Source: an uncultured Candidatus Saccharibacteria bacterium (GTDB taxonomy: Bacteria; Patescibacteriota; Saccharimonadia; CAILAD01; BJGX01). From it: a stretch of DNA of 64,000 bases. The translations under genes and the position numbers were made by a program. The stretch spans positions 7,647 to 71,646 of the forward strand of contig CAZEIU010000001.1 of assembly GCA_964512085.1 (NCBI GenBank), in the 5' to 3' direction. The notes under the pieces are model-generated. The model was not told the origin of the DNA and searched no databases. It saw only the letters and a program-made list of their open reading frames with translations. Position 1 is the stretch's first letter; every line of letters starts with the position of its first letter. Positions 12,385 through 28,177 of the stretch are shown piece by piece.

Positions 12385-14526
12385 CTATTTATCAGCGAGT
12401 TTCTTAGATAAATTCAATCTACCTTTTTCGTCTATTTCAGTAAGTTTAACTCTAAATTCATCGCCCTCATGGGTAACGTCGTTAATGTTTTTAACATGTT
12501 CATCAGAGAACTGGCTAATATGCACCAGCCCTTCTTTACCTGGTAATATCTCTACAAAAGCTCCAAAATCCATCACTCTTACCACTCTACCGTTGTAGGT
12601 TTTGCCTACTTCGGCCTCGGCAGTAATAGATTCTATCCAATCTTTGGCGGCTTTGGCCTTAGCTTCGTCTTCTGAATATATCAAAACCAATCCTGAATCT
12701 TCAATATCAATTTCTACTCCAGTTTCGGCTGTGATTTTTTGTATCATCTCGCCACCTTTACCAATAACTTCTCTAATCTTTTCTGGGTTAATCGTAAGTT
12801 TGGTAATTCTTGGGGCGTATTGACTAACTTCGGCTCGGGGTTTGTCGATAATTTCTAGCATTTTACTCAAAATATGTTCTCTACCATCTTTGGCTTGAGC
12901 CAGAGCGTCCGACATAATTGAAGACGAAATGCCTTTTACTTTAATGTCCATTTGCAATGCGGTAATACCTTTTTGAGTACCAGCTACTTTAAAATCCATA
13001 TCGCCCGCAAAATCTTCGGCATCTTGAATATCGGTAAGAATGACGTATTTTTTAGGATTGTCGTGATCAATCATTAAGCCCATAGCTACACCAGACACCG
13101 GTGCGGCAATTGGCACTCCAGCATCCATTAAGCTCATGGTGCTACCACAAACCGAAGCCATAGAGGTAGAACCAGCACTACTAAGCATTTCGCTAACTAA
13201 TCTAATGGTGTATGGAAATTCTTCTACCTCTGGAATAACTGGCACGAGAGCTTTTTCGGCCAAATAGCCGTGTCCTACTTCGCGTCTACCAGTAGATCTA
13301 ACTGGTCGAGCTTCGCCAGTACTAAAGGGCGGAAAATTGTAATGATGCATGTATCGTTTGGTAGTATCTTGCTCCATGGTATCAATAAGCTGAGCATCTG
13401 ATACCGACCCAAGCGTAGTAACTGTAAGACCTTGAGTAGTACCCCGCGTAAACACTGCCGAGCCATGGGTGCGAGGCAAAATACCTACGCCACCAGATAT
13501 AGGTCGCACTTCTGTTAGTTTACGGTTGTCGGGTCGTTTACCTTCCTCTAATACTGCTCTACGAATTTCATTATCGATTAGTTTTTCAAAAGCAAATTTT
13601 AGTTCGCTGTGACTATATCGTGTTTTGTCGTCGTCTTCGACGTCTTCAGGTAGAGTACCTAGCTCGAGTAATACTTTTTCTTCAAGTTCGGCAATCGCTT
13701 CGTGTCGAGATTGTTTGTTCTCGTGGCGAATTCGCTCTCCAAGATCTTTTTGTAACAGTTCTTTTACGGCACTGTAAGCTTCTTCATTTGGAGTAAATAG
13801 TTCGTACTCCATAGTTTTTACTTGAGCTTTTTTTACTAACTCTTGCTGTAGTTTTATAACTGGTTGCCAGCTTTTAACAGCTAGTTCGAGCCCTTTTACT
13901 ACCTCGTCTTCGCTTACTTCGTGCGCAGCGGCTTCGACCATCATAATAGCGTCGCTTGTACCGGCTACCGTGAGATTGAGATCGCTATTCTCTTGTTCGC
14001 TTACAGTTGGGTTAACTACTAGTTTACCATCAATTTTGCCTATTCTAGCCGCAGCTACTGGGCCATCAAAAGGCGCGCCAGTAAGCATTAAGGCCGAACT
14101 TGCTGCAATTACGGCTATTGTATCTGGCTCGTGGCTCAAATCGGCACTTAGTACCGTAATCATTATCTGTACATCGTTTCTAAACCCTTTTGGAAACAAT
14201 GGTCTTATAGGTCTATCAATAAGTCGGCTATTTAAAATTGCCTGATCGCTAGGACGACCCTCGCGTTTCATAAATCTGCTACCAGATATTTTACCACTAG
14301 CATACATTCGCTCTTCGTAATCTATGAGTAACGGAAAGAAGTCAGAATCTGGTTTGGCTTGAGGTGCTACTACGGCAGTAGCAAGTAATACTGTATCACC
14401 ATAACGAACTGTTACGGCCCCGTCGGCCCTAAAGGCCAACAAACCTGTTTCTAATATAAGTTTTTTACCTGCAAACTCGGTTTCGAGTTTAATGTGTTTA
14501 CCCCCAAAAGGATGAACTATCTTCAT
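12385..14526 (-). CDS. pnp: polynucleotide phosphorylase (polyribonucleotide nucleotidyltransferase)
   Basis: Two RNase PH-like domains followed by KH (REVIGKGGEMIQKI) and S1 (GRVVRVMDFGAFVEI) domains; 713 aa. Positioned downstream of rpsO as in the canonical rpsO-pnp operon. Confidence 0.95.
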   Translation of the reverse strand: MKIVHPFGGKHIKLETEFAGKKLILETGLLAFRADGAVTVRYGDTVLLATAVVAPQAKPDSDFFPLLIDYEERMYASGKISGSRFMKREGRPSDQAILNSRLIDRPIRPLFPKGFRNDVQIMITVLSADLSHEPDTIAVIAASSALMLTGAPFDGPVAAARIGKIDGKLVVNPTVSEQENSDLNLTVAGTSDAIMMVEAAAHEVSEDEVVKGLELAVKSWQPVIKLQQELVKKAQVKTMEYELFTPNEEAYSAVKELLQKDLGERIRHENKQSRHEAIAELEEKVLLELGTLPEDVEDDDKTRYSHSELKFAFEKLIDNEIRRAVLEEGKRPDNRKLTEVRPISGGVGILPRTHGSAVFTRGTTQGLTVTTLGSVSDAQLIDTMEQDTTKRYMHHYNFPPFSTGEARPVRSTGRREVGHGYLAEKALVPVIPEVEEFPYTIRLVSEMLSSAGSTSMASVCGSTMSLMDAGVPIAAPVSGVAMGLMIDHDNPKKYVILTDIQDAEDFAGDMDFKVAGTQKGITALQMDIKVKGISSSIMSDALAQAKDGREHILSKMLEIIDKPRAEVSQYAPRITKLTINPEKIREVIGKGGEMIQKITAETGVEIDIEDSGLVLIYSEDEAKAKAAKDWIESITAEAEVGKTYNGRVVRVMDFGAFVEILPGKEGLVHISQFSDEHVKNINDVTHEGDEFRVKLTEIDEKGRLNLSKKLADK

Positions 14527-18027: not shown

Positions 18028-18531
18028 TTAGCTAGTCAAAATTTTTGCATCTTGCCAGGAAAGATCGTCCCAGCTAGCATCAAAGTTACCCACAAAGGTA
18101 GGCTTATGCCACTCCCAGACAACATCGAACTCGTCGTCTTTGGCAAGCGCCTTGAGTCTAGCAAATGCAAACTCAGTAGCTACATCAACATTATCTTTTG
18201 GAGTAAAATGAAAAATTCTTAAAACCTTATCTCGCGTATCGGGCTCGCAATGTGCAGAGAAATTTATTACTTCATCTACAATGCGCCCTTGGGTATCAAA
18301 ACGAATACTCATACTCCAACTTGAGTACCAGCCATCCCACGTAACCTCTACCCTCATAAACTCTGGGTAGTCATCAGGAATCCCTAGCGTCTCAAGGTAA
18401 TTGTCTATTGAGATATCTTCGGGTATGCCAACACTGTCTCGCAAGACTTCAATGAACTTTTCGAACATTTCATCTCCTCCGTTCAAGGTGCGATTCGGGA
18501 AATCTTCCCAACAAAAACTTTCGAATACCAT
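18028..18531 (-). CDS. hypothetical acidic, Trp-rich protein
   Basis: 167-aa ORF, W/D/E-rich, no TM segment and no motif recognised. Confidence 0.45.
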   Translation of the reverse strand: MVFESFCWEDFPNRTLNGGDEMFEKFIEVLRDSVGIPEDISIDNYLETLGIPDDYPEFMRVEVTWDGWYSSWSMSIRFDTQGRIVDEVINFSAHCEPDTRDKVLRIFHFTPKDNVDVATEFAFARLKALAKDDEFDVVWEWHKPTFVGNFDASWDDLSWQDAKILTS

Positions 18532-18597
18532 TTTTATTCAAACTTTTTTGTTGAGATCCTTAAGGACCTCAAATAATGAGGCCCCTAAGGGGTTTTG

Positions 18598-18940
18598 TGG
18601 AGCTGGGGGGAATCGAACCCCCGTCCAGCCTTACAGAAAAATTACATCGCTACGACCATTCCCAATATTTGAGTTCTCAGCTACTCCAGCCTGGGTGGCT
18701 TGCTGAATCGTCTTTCCGAATCGTCAACCCAACTTTCTGGGTAAGTCAGCGGTCTTTGCCAGCTGTCACCTCCACTTCTGTTGCCAGGCTGTGGTAGATG
18801 GCCCCGAATCTTCGCACTCAGTGCGATTTTCGAACAACTTTGGGTTTTAGGCCGCGGTTGTTGGGGTGCCCCGTTTTACGAGTCTGAGCAACTCGGGTCG
18901 CAATATAGCTTCTGCAAGGATGTCGATACCGATCAGCCCC
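18598..18940 (-). ncRNA. ssrA: tmRNA (transfer-messenger RNA)
   Basis: Minus-strand 5' end GGGGCUGAUCGG pairs with 3' end CAGCUCCA, giving a 7-bp acceptor stem with G3:U70. T-arm GGACGGGGGUUCGAUUCCCCC immediately precedes the 3' end. ~343 nt, CCA not encoded. Internal tag frame not confidently assigned. Confidence 0.85.
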
Positions 18941-18974
18941 AATAAGTATTTTTAATCAAAAATACTTATTGGGG
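18937..18974. repeat. perfect 17-bp inverted repeat (CCCCAATAAGTATTTTT-aatc-AAAAATACTTATTGGGG) overlapping the tmRNA 5' end
   Basis: Read directly; one arm supplies the GGGG that starts mature tmRNA. Candidate operator, processing hairpin or element boundary. Confidence 0.6.
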
Positions 18975-19067
18975 CTCACCATGCACGATTCTCTACACAA
19001 TATTTTAAGGGTACTTATCGGTTTTACCCAACCAAAAACTACTTTGCACAGAGTAGACTTTGGTCGG

Positions 19068-19091
19068 GGTCTGAACCAAACGGTTCAGACC
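19068..19091. repeat. perfect 10-bp GC-rich hairpin (GGTCTGAACC-aaac-GGTTCAGACC)
   Basis: Read directly; lies between the small acidic ORF and the tmRNA promoter region. Confidence 0.6.
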
Positions 19092-19103
19092 GGTTGCCAG
19101 CAC

Positions 19104-19295
19104 TTACAGGTAGCCAGCCGACACCTTGGGGTTCTCTGGGAGGGTATCGTGTGCTTCGGCACACGCATGTCCACTCTCGTGACCCCTCAAGAAGAACTCC
19201 ATGCAGATCTCGACCGGGCTCATGCCCTCAGCAGTCATCTCGAGGATCATCTGCTCGGCAAGGTCGAACATGAGTTCCATCTCGGGATCCTCCAT
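19104..19295 (-). CDS. small acidic hypothetical protein (63 aa) with strong SD, GC-rich codon usage
   Basis: AAGGAGAG 6 nt upstream of ATG; helical acidic sequence MEDPEMELMFDLAEQMILEM...; codon usage (CTC/GAG/GGC) unlike the host background. Confidence 0.3.
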   Translation of the reverse strand: MEDPEMELMFDLAEQMILEMTAEGMSPVEICMEFFLRGHESGHACAEAHDTLPENPKVSAGYL

Positions 19296-20235
19296 TGCAC
19301 TCTCCTTCTTCTCGTCGGAAAAATAAAGGTAGAAATAGAAAAAGAGCTAAGTTCACCTCAAGCAAGGGTGAGCCTAAACTATCGCGGTTGCGATAGACGA
19401 GTCGCTCCAAAGCTACTACTCTCGTTTTAAGTTGCTCAAGTAGTATCAGCTAGAAAACCCAGCTGTGCTTGAGTGAGCATGAGAAATGGTCGTAAGGAAC
19501 ATCTCGGGACTATCCCGACAGAAACTTTCGAACTAGTTAAATGTTCAAAAACTTTTGTTGAGACCCTCCGAGACCCCAACAAAGTTGGAGCCCCGAAGGG
19601 GTGATGAGACAACACCTAGCTGTACTGAGCTTTCGCTAGATGGTTGAGCCGTCTGGTTAGGCTCAGGCATTATGTCTCCTTGCCCGGATCAGGATTTGCT
19701 GATGCATCTCAGCCTGATCAACTCTACCCTCTCTTGCGCATGCATCATTATGCACTTCGGAGCAGGATAGAGATTTTTGGGCAGCTGCGCTCAATCCGTC
19801 GGCAGACGAAGAGCGACGAGCCGCCACGAGCTTGACACTCCCTTTCGCGAACGCTTGCGGTTTCACCCGCTCACGCACCGGGGAAGGAATGTCGTCATTA
19901 AGCCACTAGGGTCCCCGGATCCAATTGTTTTACTACCCACCTCTCTCGAGGTCACCCGTTTGCGGGTGTCGGAGTATACCTCCGCAGGCTGGATCATTAC
20001 TTACCTCCCTACTGTCTGCGAGCGCTTCTGCAGAACTTCATCCTCACCCGGCGAACCGTTTTAGATGAAGCCTCCCCTGTAACGCCGGGAAGCAGATTGT
20101 CGTGGCAGCGATTTTAGCTGTAAGGCTCCCCACCTCCCATCGGCCCGATCGTGTCGAGTAGCGACGAAGAAGCTCTTACAGCAAGGTTGAGATGAGGCAG
20201 CGGTCCCGCCATGACCCTCAACCTAATTTTTTGAA

Positions 20236-20295
20236 AGCATTTGGCTTTCAGGCTCAATACAATGTTTGGTGTACTAAGCTTGAAAGCCAAATGCT
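20236..20295. repeat. long hairpin: 15-bp perfect stem (AGCATTTGGCTTTCA / TGAAAGCCAAATGCT), extendable to ~19 bp, ~21-nt loop, preceded by a T-run
   Basis: Read directly in the AT-richer core of the GC-rich island. Confidence 0.6.
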
Positions 20296-20598
20296 ATTTT
20301 GTAGGTACTACTATTTGCAATAACCATTTGCTACTGCCAAAGTCCGTAATGACATTACCAATCTGTCCACAATAATTTTTTAATATATGACACTGGCGCA
20401 TTACAGACTGTGGCAATATAGCAAAGTACAGTTTTCGTTCTAAGTGGCAACATGGGTTGCCGAACTCATCAGTGCTGGCACTACCAGCAGAACTGCCCCC
20501 TAGGGCAAAAACACTAGGGGTAGAGATCCTTCCAAGGGAAGGTTGAGCGTCATCTCTATGTGGCGCGCTGATTTTAGCTCGTGAGCTCGAGCAGTGGA

Positions 20599-20620
20599 AA
20601 TCTCTTGCGAGATTTTTTTA
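20599..20620 (+). terminator. rho-independent terminator-like hairpin (AATCTC-ttgc-GAGATT + T7)
   Basis: 6-bp stem followed by TTTTTTT on the plus strand; it closes a ~180-nt stretch (20440-20620) with at least three further short perfect hairpins. Confidence 0.4.
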
Positions 20621-20747
20621 AACAGGGCGCCACTATACCCTCGAGGTACAACACAGCTTTGTTGTGGGAGCTACCCCAGACCTTGTCTCACCGATTCTTT
20701 TTCTCTCGGTTTGACTTCTGTTGCCAGGGAGGTCAATCCCCCTCAAG

Positions 20748-20966
20748 TCACTGAGTGACTAGCTGTGGCGACCGGCGTGGGGGCACAGGCTCAACGTGGT
20801 TGTAGTCAACCTCGTCGTCTGCGAAGGACCCAAACGGGTACCCTCGCCCACAACTCGGGCAGATCCTCTGCCGAGTCGCGTCCCAGCCGGTGTACTTCAG
20901 CACCGTGTCATCTACGACACAGCGCTTCAGTTCCACCTTCTTCTTTCTCTTGGTAGGCATACACAA
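20748..20966 (-). CDS. small zinc-ribbon-like hypothetical protein (72 aa; may start at second ATG, 20960)
   Basis: MPTKRKKKVELKRCVVDD...ICPSCGRGYPFGSF...; a C-x2-C pair with a basic N-terminus; strongly GC-biased codons (CTG, GTG, GAC) foreign to this genome. Confidence 0.35.
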   Translation of the reverse strand: MCMPTKRKKKVELKRCVVDDTVLKYTGWDATRQRICPSCGRGYPFGSFADDEVDYNHVEPVPPRRSPQLVTQ

Positions 20967-21170
20967 ATCACTGTTTAAATGCTCTATGTGTGCCTACCAA
21001 TTTATTACAGGTAAAAGGTACTTTGGGTAGTATAGCAAAGAATATTATTTTTGTCAATACTTATTTACACTTTTTTTAGAGTTTGCAACTTCTTTCCTGT
21101 AGCTAATACTATATTTTGTGTTAATAACAAATATTTTTGTAAGGTTTATTAGTTTTTTTGTACGTAAAAA

Positions 21171-21188
21171 CCCGACATTAATGTCGGG
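21171..21188 (-). terminator. rho-independent terminator (CCCGACA-ttaa-TGTCGGG followed by T5 on the minus strand)
   Basis: 7-bp GC-rich stem; AAAAA on the plus strand at 21166-21170 gives a U-run in the minus sense. Terminates a minus-strand transcript coming from the GC-rich block 21240-21540. Confidence 0.5.
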
Positions 21189-21621
21189 TGATATGGTGTT
21201 GCCAGTAGTAATGGCGATATAGAGCCTTAATTACTATGGCAGAGATCGGTAATACTTACACTCCAGCTGTGTCGGTCGCGAAAGTGTCGCGCCTGCTAGA
21301 GGGAGACTTTTCTGCCGCACTGCTGTGTCTGCGTGATGAGTGACTGTGTGGCGGGTGGGTGGCCGAGAGTCTCAATCTCGACGCAATTTGGTAGGATCAA
21401 ATTCCTTCCATCCCTTTTCCTCTCCAGTGTTCAGCTGTTACCACTTGGGCCGCCCCAGGACCTTCCTGGGGCTCCTCGCTGCCCTCTCTTGAGGGCGAAG
21501 AAAGGATCGTCAGATCCCGTCCATGTATTACCCCCCCTTTAGAGAAGTGAGCGAGAACAGCTTTTACCAATATAACAGTTTAACTATTTTTTGTCAATAG
21601 TATTTGACAACAAAAAATATT

Positions 21622-22419
21622 TTACTTTTGATTCTTCCAGGCAAGTTCAAAAAGTTGTCGCAATACCCCCGCGATTTCCTTACTTTCAATAACAAGGCCT
21701 AATGCATCCTTGCCTCTATAAGTAGCAATTACAACAGCTCCTTTATAAAAGTTTAAGTCAGCCTTAATGGGTGTATCTATTTTTTTAGTTTCGCGTAAAA
21801 TTGATCTGTCGCTCTTAAGTTCGCCATTTAAATATGAATAAATTAGTTTACTAGCAATTTTCTTACGCATTCTATTTTTAGGGTTCTCAATCAATACATT
21901 TGGGTTAATTTTTAAAACTTCATCAACGTTAGTTAAAGAATATATTTCATCCCCTACCTTTGATTTACGCTTATAGTAGGAGCTAAGTACTTTAATTCCT
22001 TCTTCGCCTTTATAAAAACGCACAACTGGCGCATCGTCACCATCACTGGTAGCACGAGATACCTCTTTAAGACCTGGTAATAAGTTTTTGAGTTCATTTT
22101 TTTTGTTCATTACCTCAGTCGCCTGATTCTCTAAATATCTATCGATGGCTTCTGGTGGTTCGGCCACAAAAACGGTTTTTTTGCCTTGAGTGCTCTCGCT
22201 TACTAGCCCCATCTGAGCAAGTTCGTCGAGTATTACATAAGCTGTAGCTCGGTTTACATCGGCTTGCTCAGCGATTTTTTGTACGGCACTAGGGCCCAAA
22301 AATAATGCTGCCACGTAAACTTTGGCTTGCTTTTCGCTAAAGCCTACAGATTGGAGTTTGGCAGCTAGTTCAATTATTTGCATAAGGCTTATGCTATCAT
22401 AGTTTTGGGCTGTTGTCAA
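21622..22419 (-). CDS. TrmB-family transcriptional regulator (winged-helix HTH)
   Basis: N-terminal HTH region (MQIIELAAKLQSVGFSEKQAKVYVAALFLGPSAVQKIAEQADVNRATAYVILDELAQMGLV) typical of TrmB-like regulators, plus a C-terminal effector domain. Confidence 0.6.
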   Translation of the reverse strand: MTTAQNYDSISLMQIIELAAKLQSVGFSEKQAKVYVAALFLGPSAVQKIAEQADVNRATAYVILDELAQMGLVSESTQGKKTVFVAEPPEAIDRYLENQATEVMNKKNELKNLLPGLKEVSRATSDGDDAPVVRFYKGEEGIKVLSSYYKRKSKVGDEIYSLTNVDEVLKINPNVLIENPKNRMRKKIASKLIYSYLNGELKSDRSILRETKKIDTPIKADLNFYKGAVVIATYRGKDALGLVIESKEIAGVLRQLFELAWKNQK

Positions 22420-28004: not shown

Positions 28005-28177
28005 TACAATTATTAGATACTACTACCAAGCCACCGGGGTCACTGTTAATCTCGCCAGATTATCACACCCCTTGGCTTTGGCCTCTCTTTCATTTATTAC
28101 TCTACAAATTGAGTTTGTACTGATGAGCTTCTGCTAATAAATATCGCAAAGCGAAAGTAATAAATAGTCAATAATTA

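Follow-up and report, generated by a model that had tools for sequence, protein, structure and literature searches.

The 64,000-nucleotide stretch of DNA analyzed here (the window) contains one 15-nt string twice, inside the tmRNA gene (ssrA) and again in the GC-rich island beside it, which raises the question of whether the two copies are connected and, if so, how. An earlier note on this DNA had proposed that the island was built on tmRNA-derived sequence, for example as an att-like remnant, or that the island RNA can pair with tmRNA. The genes of the locus are arranged in the order pnp, rpsO, truB, a DHH-family gene, tRNA-Lys, ssrA, the GC-rich island, a gene for a TrmB-like regulator, rpsT and holA, and the window can be assigned to Saccharimonadales/Saccharibacteria from the annotated homologues of its TrmB-like protein.

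On the plus strand, ACTTCTGTTGCCAGG occurs exactly twice in the window, at 18774–18788 and at 20714–20728, and a search of the window for a third copy at ≤2 mismatches returned none; both positions had been given correctly by the earlier note. The two copies are sense-oriented in minus-strand transcripts, where they read CCUGGCAACAGAAGU. The second begins 19 nt after the TGA at 20748–20750, in line with the distance of about 20 nt past a small-ORF stop that had been claimed. The heptamer CCACAGC is indeed found near both copies, but it is uninformative: the island occurrence is part of the ORF and shows no conservation in the related loci L009 and L011. The expectation of 1e-4 that had been attached to the match fits one pre-specified 15-mer only; the window has 11 exact direct 15-mer pairs as compared with a mean of 8.2 in order-3 Markov simulations, 37% of these simulations contain a 15-mer pair within 2.5 kb, and a tmRNA-sized segment shares a 15-mer with the rest of the window in 2% of them. 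Local alignment of the tmRNA with the island gives no significant similarity, since 21 of 200 shuffles reach the same score, and the best alignment consists of the 15-mer plus noise. On the window alone, the match is indistinguishable from chance. That the link to tmRNA is real follows from comparative data on related Saccharibacteria, and not from window statistics.

Exact-protein look-ups returned seven public contigs, which are uninformative because they belong to the same population and are 100% identical over the island. Related loci, labelled L008, L009 and so on, were collected from metagenome-assembled genomes via the TrmB-like protein, with ~20 kb per genome. The arrangement of a TrmB-like gene, 1.3–3.7 kb with few called genes, and then tmRNA is found in L009/L010, L016, L022, L029, L032, L034, L036, L037, L038 and L049, and the TrmB-like proteins of loci that keep this order are 50–75% identical. 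The window island can be aligned in part to L008, L009 and L011. Contigs L008, L011, L014, L015 and L017 end 1–2 kb past the TrmB-like gene, within the island, and the islands of L009 and L010 differ by 479 nt despite an identical TrmB; the island is strain-variable or repeat-rich.

The tmRNA gene occupies 18595–18940 of the minus strand, where Rfam RF00023 gives a full-length match of 109.7 bits (E=6e-42; gathering score 47); ARAGORN missed the gene. Its tag frame, as read from the sequence, ends in …TTAA-stop. The window tmRNA is 74% identical to that of L009, and orthologues are present in 10 relatives. In the alignment of 11 tmRNAs, the H-type pseudoknot PK2 maps to 18770–18804 of the minus strand and is built from two helices: S1, 18801–18804 with 18786–18789 (GGGC/GCCU), and S2, 18791–18794 with 18772–18775 (CCAC/GUGG). 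Loop L3, GGCAACAGAA, follows directly after the 3' strand of S1 at 18776–18785. In the first copy of the 15-mer, L3 is complete and is flanked by the three final nucleotides of the S1 3' strand (CCU) and the two initial ones of the S2 3' strand (GU). Across the alignment, 99% of the cells in the two helices are paired, with compensatory changes in 5 of 9 pairs, as compared with 31–50% in controls in which the partners were slid by 1–3 columns. S1 switches from G:C to A:U in five of the tmRNA sequences, four pairs of S2 covary, and L3 is near-invariant while S1 and S2 both vary. The predicted pseudoknot is thus supported by covariation. PK2–PK4 of tmRNA are usually regarded as interchangeable scaffolding. 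The motif is missing from the tmRNAs of more distant Saccharimonadia, whose loci are also free of island copies. A perfect 19-nt inverted repeat lies at 18935–18976, with one arm equal to the first bases of the mature tmRNA; as a hairpin it might act in processing of the precursor, or it might terminate the upstream unit.

The island copy lies in a block conserved between the window, L009 and L011, which we refer to as the PK2-like 3' UTR element (20665–20743, minus strand). The element starts with hairpin HP1 (20726–20743, AGGGGG-AUUGAC-CUCCCU), which adjoins the core GGCAACAGAA (20716–20725), and continues with HP2 (20690–20710), which has the loop GAGAAAAAGAA and covarying pairs, and HP3 (20665–20678). 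A counterpart of S2 may be formed by UUGAC at 20732–20736 and GUCAA at 20711–20715. In the second copy of the 15-mer, the core is preceded by the final 3 nt of HP1 (CCU) and followed by the 2 nt that open the next helix. The letter that follows the core is shared between tmRNA and island in the window (T) and in L009 (C), and belongs to different helices in the two contexts. A search of 18400–21800 with RF00023 gave no second match at E≤10; by this search and the local alignment, the island copy is not a second tmRNA or a fragment with tRNA-like or tag domains.

Upstream, the element adjoins a small cysteine-rich ORF (20748–20960, minus strand; 70 aa from ATG, or 72 aa from a TTG at 20966). 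A promoter-like site at 21029–21057 of the same strand (TTGACA-17-TATACT with TG, 11 of 12 consensus positions) is conserved in L008, L009 and L011, and would serve the transcript of ORF and element. The ORF is kept as protein in L009 and L011 (49–50% identity, E=1e-13 to 3e-14) and matches no Pfam family; word-based searches found no homologues of ORF72 or ORF167, nor were any of ORF167 found in genome contigs. In the unit from promoter to ribozyme, the best-conserved part between the window, L009 and L011 is the block GGGGGAYURACCUCYCUGGCAACAGAAG…ACCRAGAGAAAAA(A)GAAUYGGU, and invariant columns make up 72% of the element versus 24–64% within the ORF.

An exact search for GGCAACAGAA in 1.24 Mb of Saccharibacteria loci gave 25 copies on the gene/tmRNA strand and none on the opposite strand, where ~1.2 per strand are expected; the genomes compared are related, so that these counts are not independent events and overstate their independent number. 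Eleven of the copies lie in tmRNA PK2 and 13 in islands, and one looks random. All 16 non-tmRNA copies compared have a helix of 4–8 bp (5' GGG… / …CCU 3'), corresponding to HP1, whose last base immediately precedes the core, and these helices are of at least 10 different sequences. For comparison, 34% of random positions reach 5 bp even when the helix end is allowed to lie ≤2 nt away. MAFFT and RNAalifold lost the register of HP1, and the helix tables were computed by script. The four pairs of S1 are kept at 98% over the tmRNA and island matches together.

Beyond the first helix and the core, the copies diverge. Full pseudoknots with the PK2 topology can be drawn for L016, L029 (CAAGAA/UUCUUG), L034 and L036 and for two further copies in L130 (UAGUGA/UCACUA), and possibly for the window copy (UUGAC/GUCAA). 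The second helix is absent from the copies in L009, L019, L028, L033 and L038, and most island copies are for this reason not full PK2 mimics. Other copies run straight into the hairpin with the GAGAAAAAGAA loop, whose stem covaries, and then into a third hairpin.

A covariance model (R1) built from the 11 tmRNA PK2 segments only was run over 739 kb and, with E-values that are rough, finds 12 island copies at E<0.05: one at 5e-5 (L130), one each at 6e-5, 3e-4 and 1e-3, four at 6–7e-3 and four at 0.019–0.033. One further island copy scores E=0.052, and the model adds new one-mismatch variants in L018, L021 and L035. The window's own island copy reaches only E=1.6–3.2 with the PK2 model, and in nhmmer searches with tmRNA profiles the island copies are borderline (E=0.003–7). 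Similarity beyond the 10–14 nt core and the GGG/CCU ends of the helix is slight. As judged by these comparisons, the resemblance between island element and PK2 is one of short sequence and structure, and not long homology. In a scan of metagenomes with the pattern, about 6 of 67 matches are true elements, and most of the matches are GroEL and other purine-rich coding sequence.

The proposal of the earlier note that the island was built on tmRNA-derived sequence can be retained in part. A model trained on tmRNA PK2 only retrieves island copies in relatives, which relates the island copy to the first helix and L3 of PK2, and the copy could have originated by duplication of PK2; it is not an att remnant, as discussed below. 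Concerted evolution of the two copies was considered and rejected. The variants of the two copies within a genome do not track each other (L010, L016, L034, L036, L037 and L038), and gene conversion consequently does not explain their identity. In L037, an identical helix and core are found on both sides of ssrA.

The position of the element relative to genes is recurrent. An ATG ORF of 48–127 aa ends near the element in 21 of 21 copies, under a criterion (ORF end ≤49 nt upstream of HP1 or ≤20 nt into the element) that 10% of random positions pass. The gap between stop and helix has a median of ~10 nt with extremes of −20 and +49 nt, and roughly half of the copies have a helix or pseudoknot that starts ~7–15 nt past the stop. 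The upstream ORFs belong to at least three unrelated conserved families, together with singletons, and most of the element-bearing genes lie between the gene for the TrmB-like regulator and ssrA. A different setting is seen in the 210-kb contig L130/L160: at least three copies there have a small ORF on one side and an intrinsic terminator on the other, recA and a clpX-like gene are nearby, and the 14.6 kb examined contain no tmRNA. This contig, IMGVR_UViG_3300013005_000001, is the sole match from a viral collection; it encodes a bacterial-type RecA and a ClpX-like ATPase, and is on that basis probably cellular despite its viral listing. A series of small gene cassettes on this contig has one terminator-promoter module (…UUUUUCUUUUAUGGGUAG…) in common, and three or more of these cassettes contain the PK2-like element.

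Downstream, the element is followed by a predicted ribozyme. A putative type III hammerhead at 20427–20497 of the minus strand, ~220 nt downstream of the window element, scores 27.7 bits with RF00008 (E=0.005), which is below the gathering score of 48.5, and has the CUGAUGA and GAAA cores, three helices and all core nucleotides; cleavage is predicted after C20490. At least 10 genomes carry a hammerhead on the same strand 100–250 nt downstream of the element (the window, L016, L018, L028, L029, L030, L033, L034, L036 and L038). The stems of these homologues covary, and the L038 hammerhead passes the Rfam gathering score (48.7 bits). These are canonical bacterial type III hammerheads and as such a separate, known RNA class; we found no description of their pairing with a PK2-like element and a small ORF. 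Likewise, no description of the PK2-like motif was found in the literature, and searches for the motif and for Saccharibacteria hammerheads gave nothing relevant. A second type III hammerhead lies at 28098–28159 on the plus strand (23 bits, E=0.034 in a 1-kb scan), intergenic and far from the island, and its subfamily is also present in L018, L019, L034 and L036.

Several other features of the island deserve mention in their own right. An intergenic module of ~95 nt is found at 18506–18593, just 3' of the tmRNA, and at 19513–19602 within the island (72% identity); it consists of two hairpins plus UUCGAAAGUUUYUGUYGGGA…UCCCGA and recurs in L009/L010 at 12789–12853. The resemblance of 18506–18593 to 19513–19602 had suggested a tandem duplication of tmRNA plus ORF167 with a period of ~1007 nt, which is ruled out by two observations: (i) there is no residual similarity to tmRNA or ORF167 elsewhere in the island, and (ii) the shared piece is an intergenic module that is also present in L009/L010. 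ORF167 is unrelated to the 147-aa gene of L010, and its real start is probably an internal ATG preceded by GGAGGAG; the database form has 146 aa.

Directly past the hammerhead, the minus strand of 19603–20400 holds a highly conserved block, CCAGUGYC.AUAUUUAAAA…GGCAGAUUGG, then a variable hairpin, and then a GC-rich RNA of ~600 nt that ends at a terminator-like hairpin. Its conserved stretches (UGGCGGGAC.GCUGCCUCA, CAACCUUGCUG.AAGAG and CCGAUACGAUCGG.CCGAUG) are common to L008, L009 and L029, and the RNA has neither an Rfam match nor a convincing ORF. A further GC-rich transcription unit at 21170–21597 (minus strand), with a near-consensus promoter at 21569–21597 and a terminator at 21170–21189, contains two conserved 4-codon mini-ORFs with Shine-Dalgarno sequences: 21510–21524 (MDGI-stop) and 21397–21411 (MEGI-stop). 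The mini-ORFs show synonymous changes in L008, L009, L011 and L016, and the hairpin between them covaries. The 8-mer CUGGCAAC has 10 copies in the window versus 1.5 expected. One is at 19093–19100 (minus strand), 4 nt past the stop of a 63-aa ORF (19104–19295) with a good AAGGAG ribosome-binding site, and another is at 21198–21205 (minus strand), near the 3' end of the mini-ORF RNA.

Based on the covariation and the strand-specific recurrence of the core, we consider it very probable that tmRNA PK2 and the island elements have in common an RNA module maintained by selection. The module consists of single-stranded GGCAACAGAA(G) joined directly, on its 5' side, to a G-C-rich helix (5' GGG… / …CCU 3'); in tmRNA these are L3 and S1 of PK2. 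The Saccharibacteria of this clade place it, as a 3' UTR element, around the stops of genes for small, fast-evolving proteins. It is also probable, although we hold this with less confidence, that the PK2-type module was reused as a 3' UTR element and that its invariant strand is a sequence-specific ligand site shared with tmRNA.

Which ligand this might be is suggested by work on E. coli, where nucleotides 183–186 of PK2 bind the KH2 domain of uS3 (PMC8363625), and where helix 6a of tmRNA extends over C138–G181 and nucleotides 182–188 are unpaired (PMC1168896). On this assignment, nucleotides 183–186 are part of the unpaired stretch that begins where the 3' strand of the first PK2 helix ends, topologically equivalent to GGCAACAGAA. 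Ribosomal protein S1, too, binds PK2 most strongly (PMC3968760). The likeliest ligand would then be the KH2 domain of uS3 at the mRNA entrance: a ribosome terminating on the small ORF would hold the 3' UTR as tmRNA is held, and a helix-flanked invariant strand ~10 nt past the stop would occupy the same ribosomal site at termination. We offer docking on uS3 and the ribosome specifically as a tentative proposal, on balance improbable in this form. The uS3 contact is known for E. coli alone and would extend to this lineage by topological equivalence, and the range of stop-to-helix distances, −20 to +49 nt, is loose for a fixed ribosomal geometry.

The comparison with known systems delimits what is particular to the element. 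Like PK2 (helices 6 and 7 of RF00023), it has a G-C helix that ends in CCU and is followed by GGCAACAGAA, several island copies are of the full H-type, and a PK2-only model detects island copies. It differs from PK2 in that it occurs by itself in the 3' UTRs of mRNAs, where the tRNA-like domain, the tag frame and the other pseudoknots are all missing, and in that many island copies exchange the second helix for the GAGAAAAAGAA-loop hairpin, which tmRNA lacks. Viral readthrough and frameshift pseudoknots, located shortly past a stop or slippery codon, and REP-type stabilizers offer a second, loose parallel, since a helix that starts ~7–15 nt past the stop, as in about half of the copies, places the element at the mRNA entrance of the terminating ribosome. 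In contrast to recoding pseudoknots, the spacing is not fixed and no extended frame past the stop is conserved, and we have set aside a readthrough or frameshift signal on account of the variable spacing and the lack of conservation in downstream frames. Unlike both recoding signals and REP elements, the element is defined by an invariant loop sequence shared with tmRNA.

Four other explanations have to be weighed against a shared ligand site. The strongest, which we regard as having a minor chance of being correct, is that helix, A-rich strand and hairpins form a compact pseudoknot or triplex that blocks 3'-to-5' exonucleases and protects mRNAs with hammerhead-cut 3' ends or short 3' UTRs; the same fold would also stabilize tmRNA itself, without any need for a common ligand. 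The location of the element between the stop and a hammerhead, or an intrinsic terminator in L160, agrees with such a role, as does a report that PK2–PK4 of tmRNA serve folding and maturation and not tagging (PMC3968760), and the conserved GGG/CCU pairs beside an A-rich L3 would fit a minor-groove triplex. However, a structural block alone leaves unexplained why a 10-nt strand is invariant amid changing helices; moreover, the element lies 100–250 nt upstream of the ribozyme cut and not at the RNA end, and with z=−1.4 the window element does not stand out in folding energy.

Less probable still is a site that acts at the DNA level, for recombination or protein binding, in the manner of an integron attC or an operator of the TrmB-like regulator. 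Such a site would drive the turnover of cassettes beside ssrA, with the PK2 segment of ssrA as the matching site. The variability between the islands of L009 and L010, the many contigs that end inside the island, the different small ORFs that bear the same element and the identical helix and core flanking ssrA in L037 would all be in keeping with this, and folded single-stranded DNA would also show covariation of helices. It is countered by the facts that no recombinase came to notice among the called neighbours of the island, that all copies lie in the mRNA sense strand, directly past stops, and that the motif is not palindromic, unlike typical operators; in addition, ssrA would be broken in two by an insertion at PK2, and the flanks of the island copies contain no halves of a tmRNA.

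We consider it very unlikely that the island copy is a neutral remnant of a partial ssrA duplication or of the att site of an integrated element. Integrated elements are known to target ssrA, the copy lies near this gene, and ~95 nt from just 3' of ssrA are duplicated in the island. Partial ssrA/tRNA duplications of the att type share with the island copy a short identical string in ssrA and in nearby DNA, but they derive from the 3' end of ssrA, flank an integrase-bearing element and are not maintained by selection. The island string matches the interior of ssrA, is found 5' of the gene and follows stops, and its core is kept down to ~50% TrmB identity (among genomes at 50–75%) while flanks diverge and helices compensate. 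No integrase was noticed among the genes called beside the island (TrmB-like regulator, rpsT, holA, DHH-family, truB, rpsO and pnp). Loci without an island copy (L032 and L049) keep the tmRNA motif, and island copies elsewhere are better conserved than their flanks. Partial duplicates of the tmRNA 3' end do occur shortly downstream of the gene in L032 (5211–5276) and L059 (15872–15902); these are classical att-type repeats of integrated elements and look different from the island copies.

Finally, we give almost no credence to a coincidence, or to antisense pairing between tmRNA and an island RNA: although a 15-mer repeat is ordinary within the window, chance is excluded by the 25 versus 0 strand asymmetry and the conserved context in relatives, and pairing, which would need plus-strand transcription over 20714–20728 (a weak promoter-like site lies at 20349–20376), is opposed by two copies that, both being sense in conserved minus-strand units, are identical and not complementary and so cannot pair with each other, and by the lack of a complementary site in the window.

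The preferred reading, a module shared with tmRNA and carrying a common ligand site, has consequences beyond this locus. PK2 is the pseudoknot that touches the ribosome, and here its L3 is frozen and the same loop and helix are copied behind many unrelated small genes. The frozen loop points to a sequence-specific partner of PK2, and the copies would provide a natural set of variants for finding that partner. In its most far-reaching form, which we consider doubtful, the hypothesis states that mRNAs for small proteins carry a PK2 mimic past the stop that docks on the ribosomal site of tmRNA (uS3 KH2 at the mRNA entrance) or on the same protein as tmRNA does. If this is true, the mimic would couple expression, termination or rescue to trans-translation, for example by excluding or competing with tmRNA, and would be the first case of mRNAs imitating a tmRNA domain. 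More generally, the element adds a new candidate to the RNA motifs of the Candidate Phyla Radiation, and the combination of small ORF, PK2-like element and hammerhead that recurs in the strain-variable DNA next to ssrA would offer a tractable entry to post-transcriptional control in organisms that have barely been studied experimentally.
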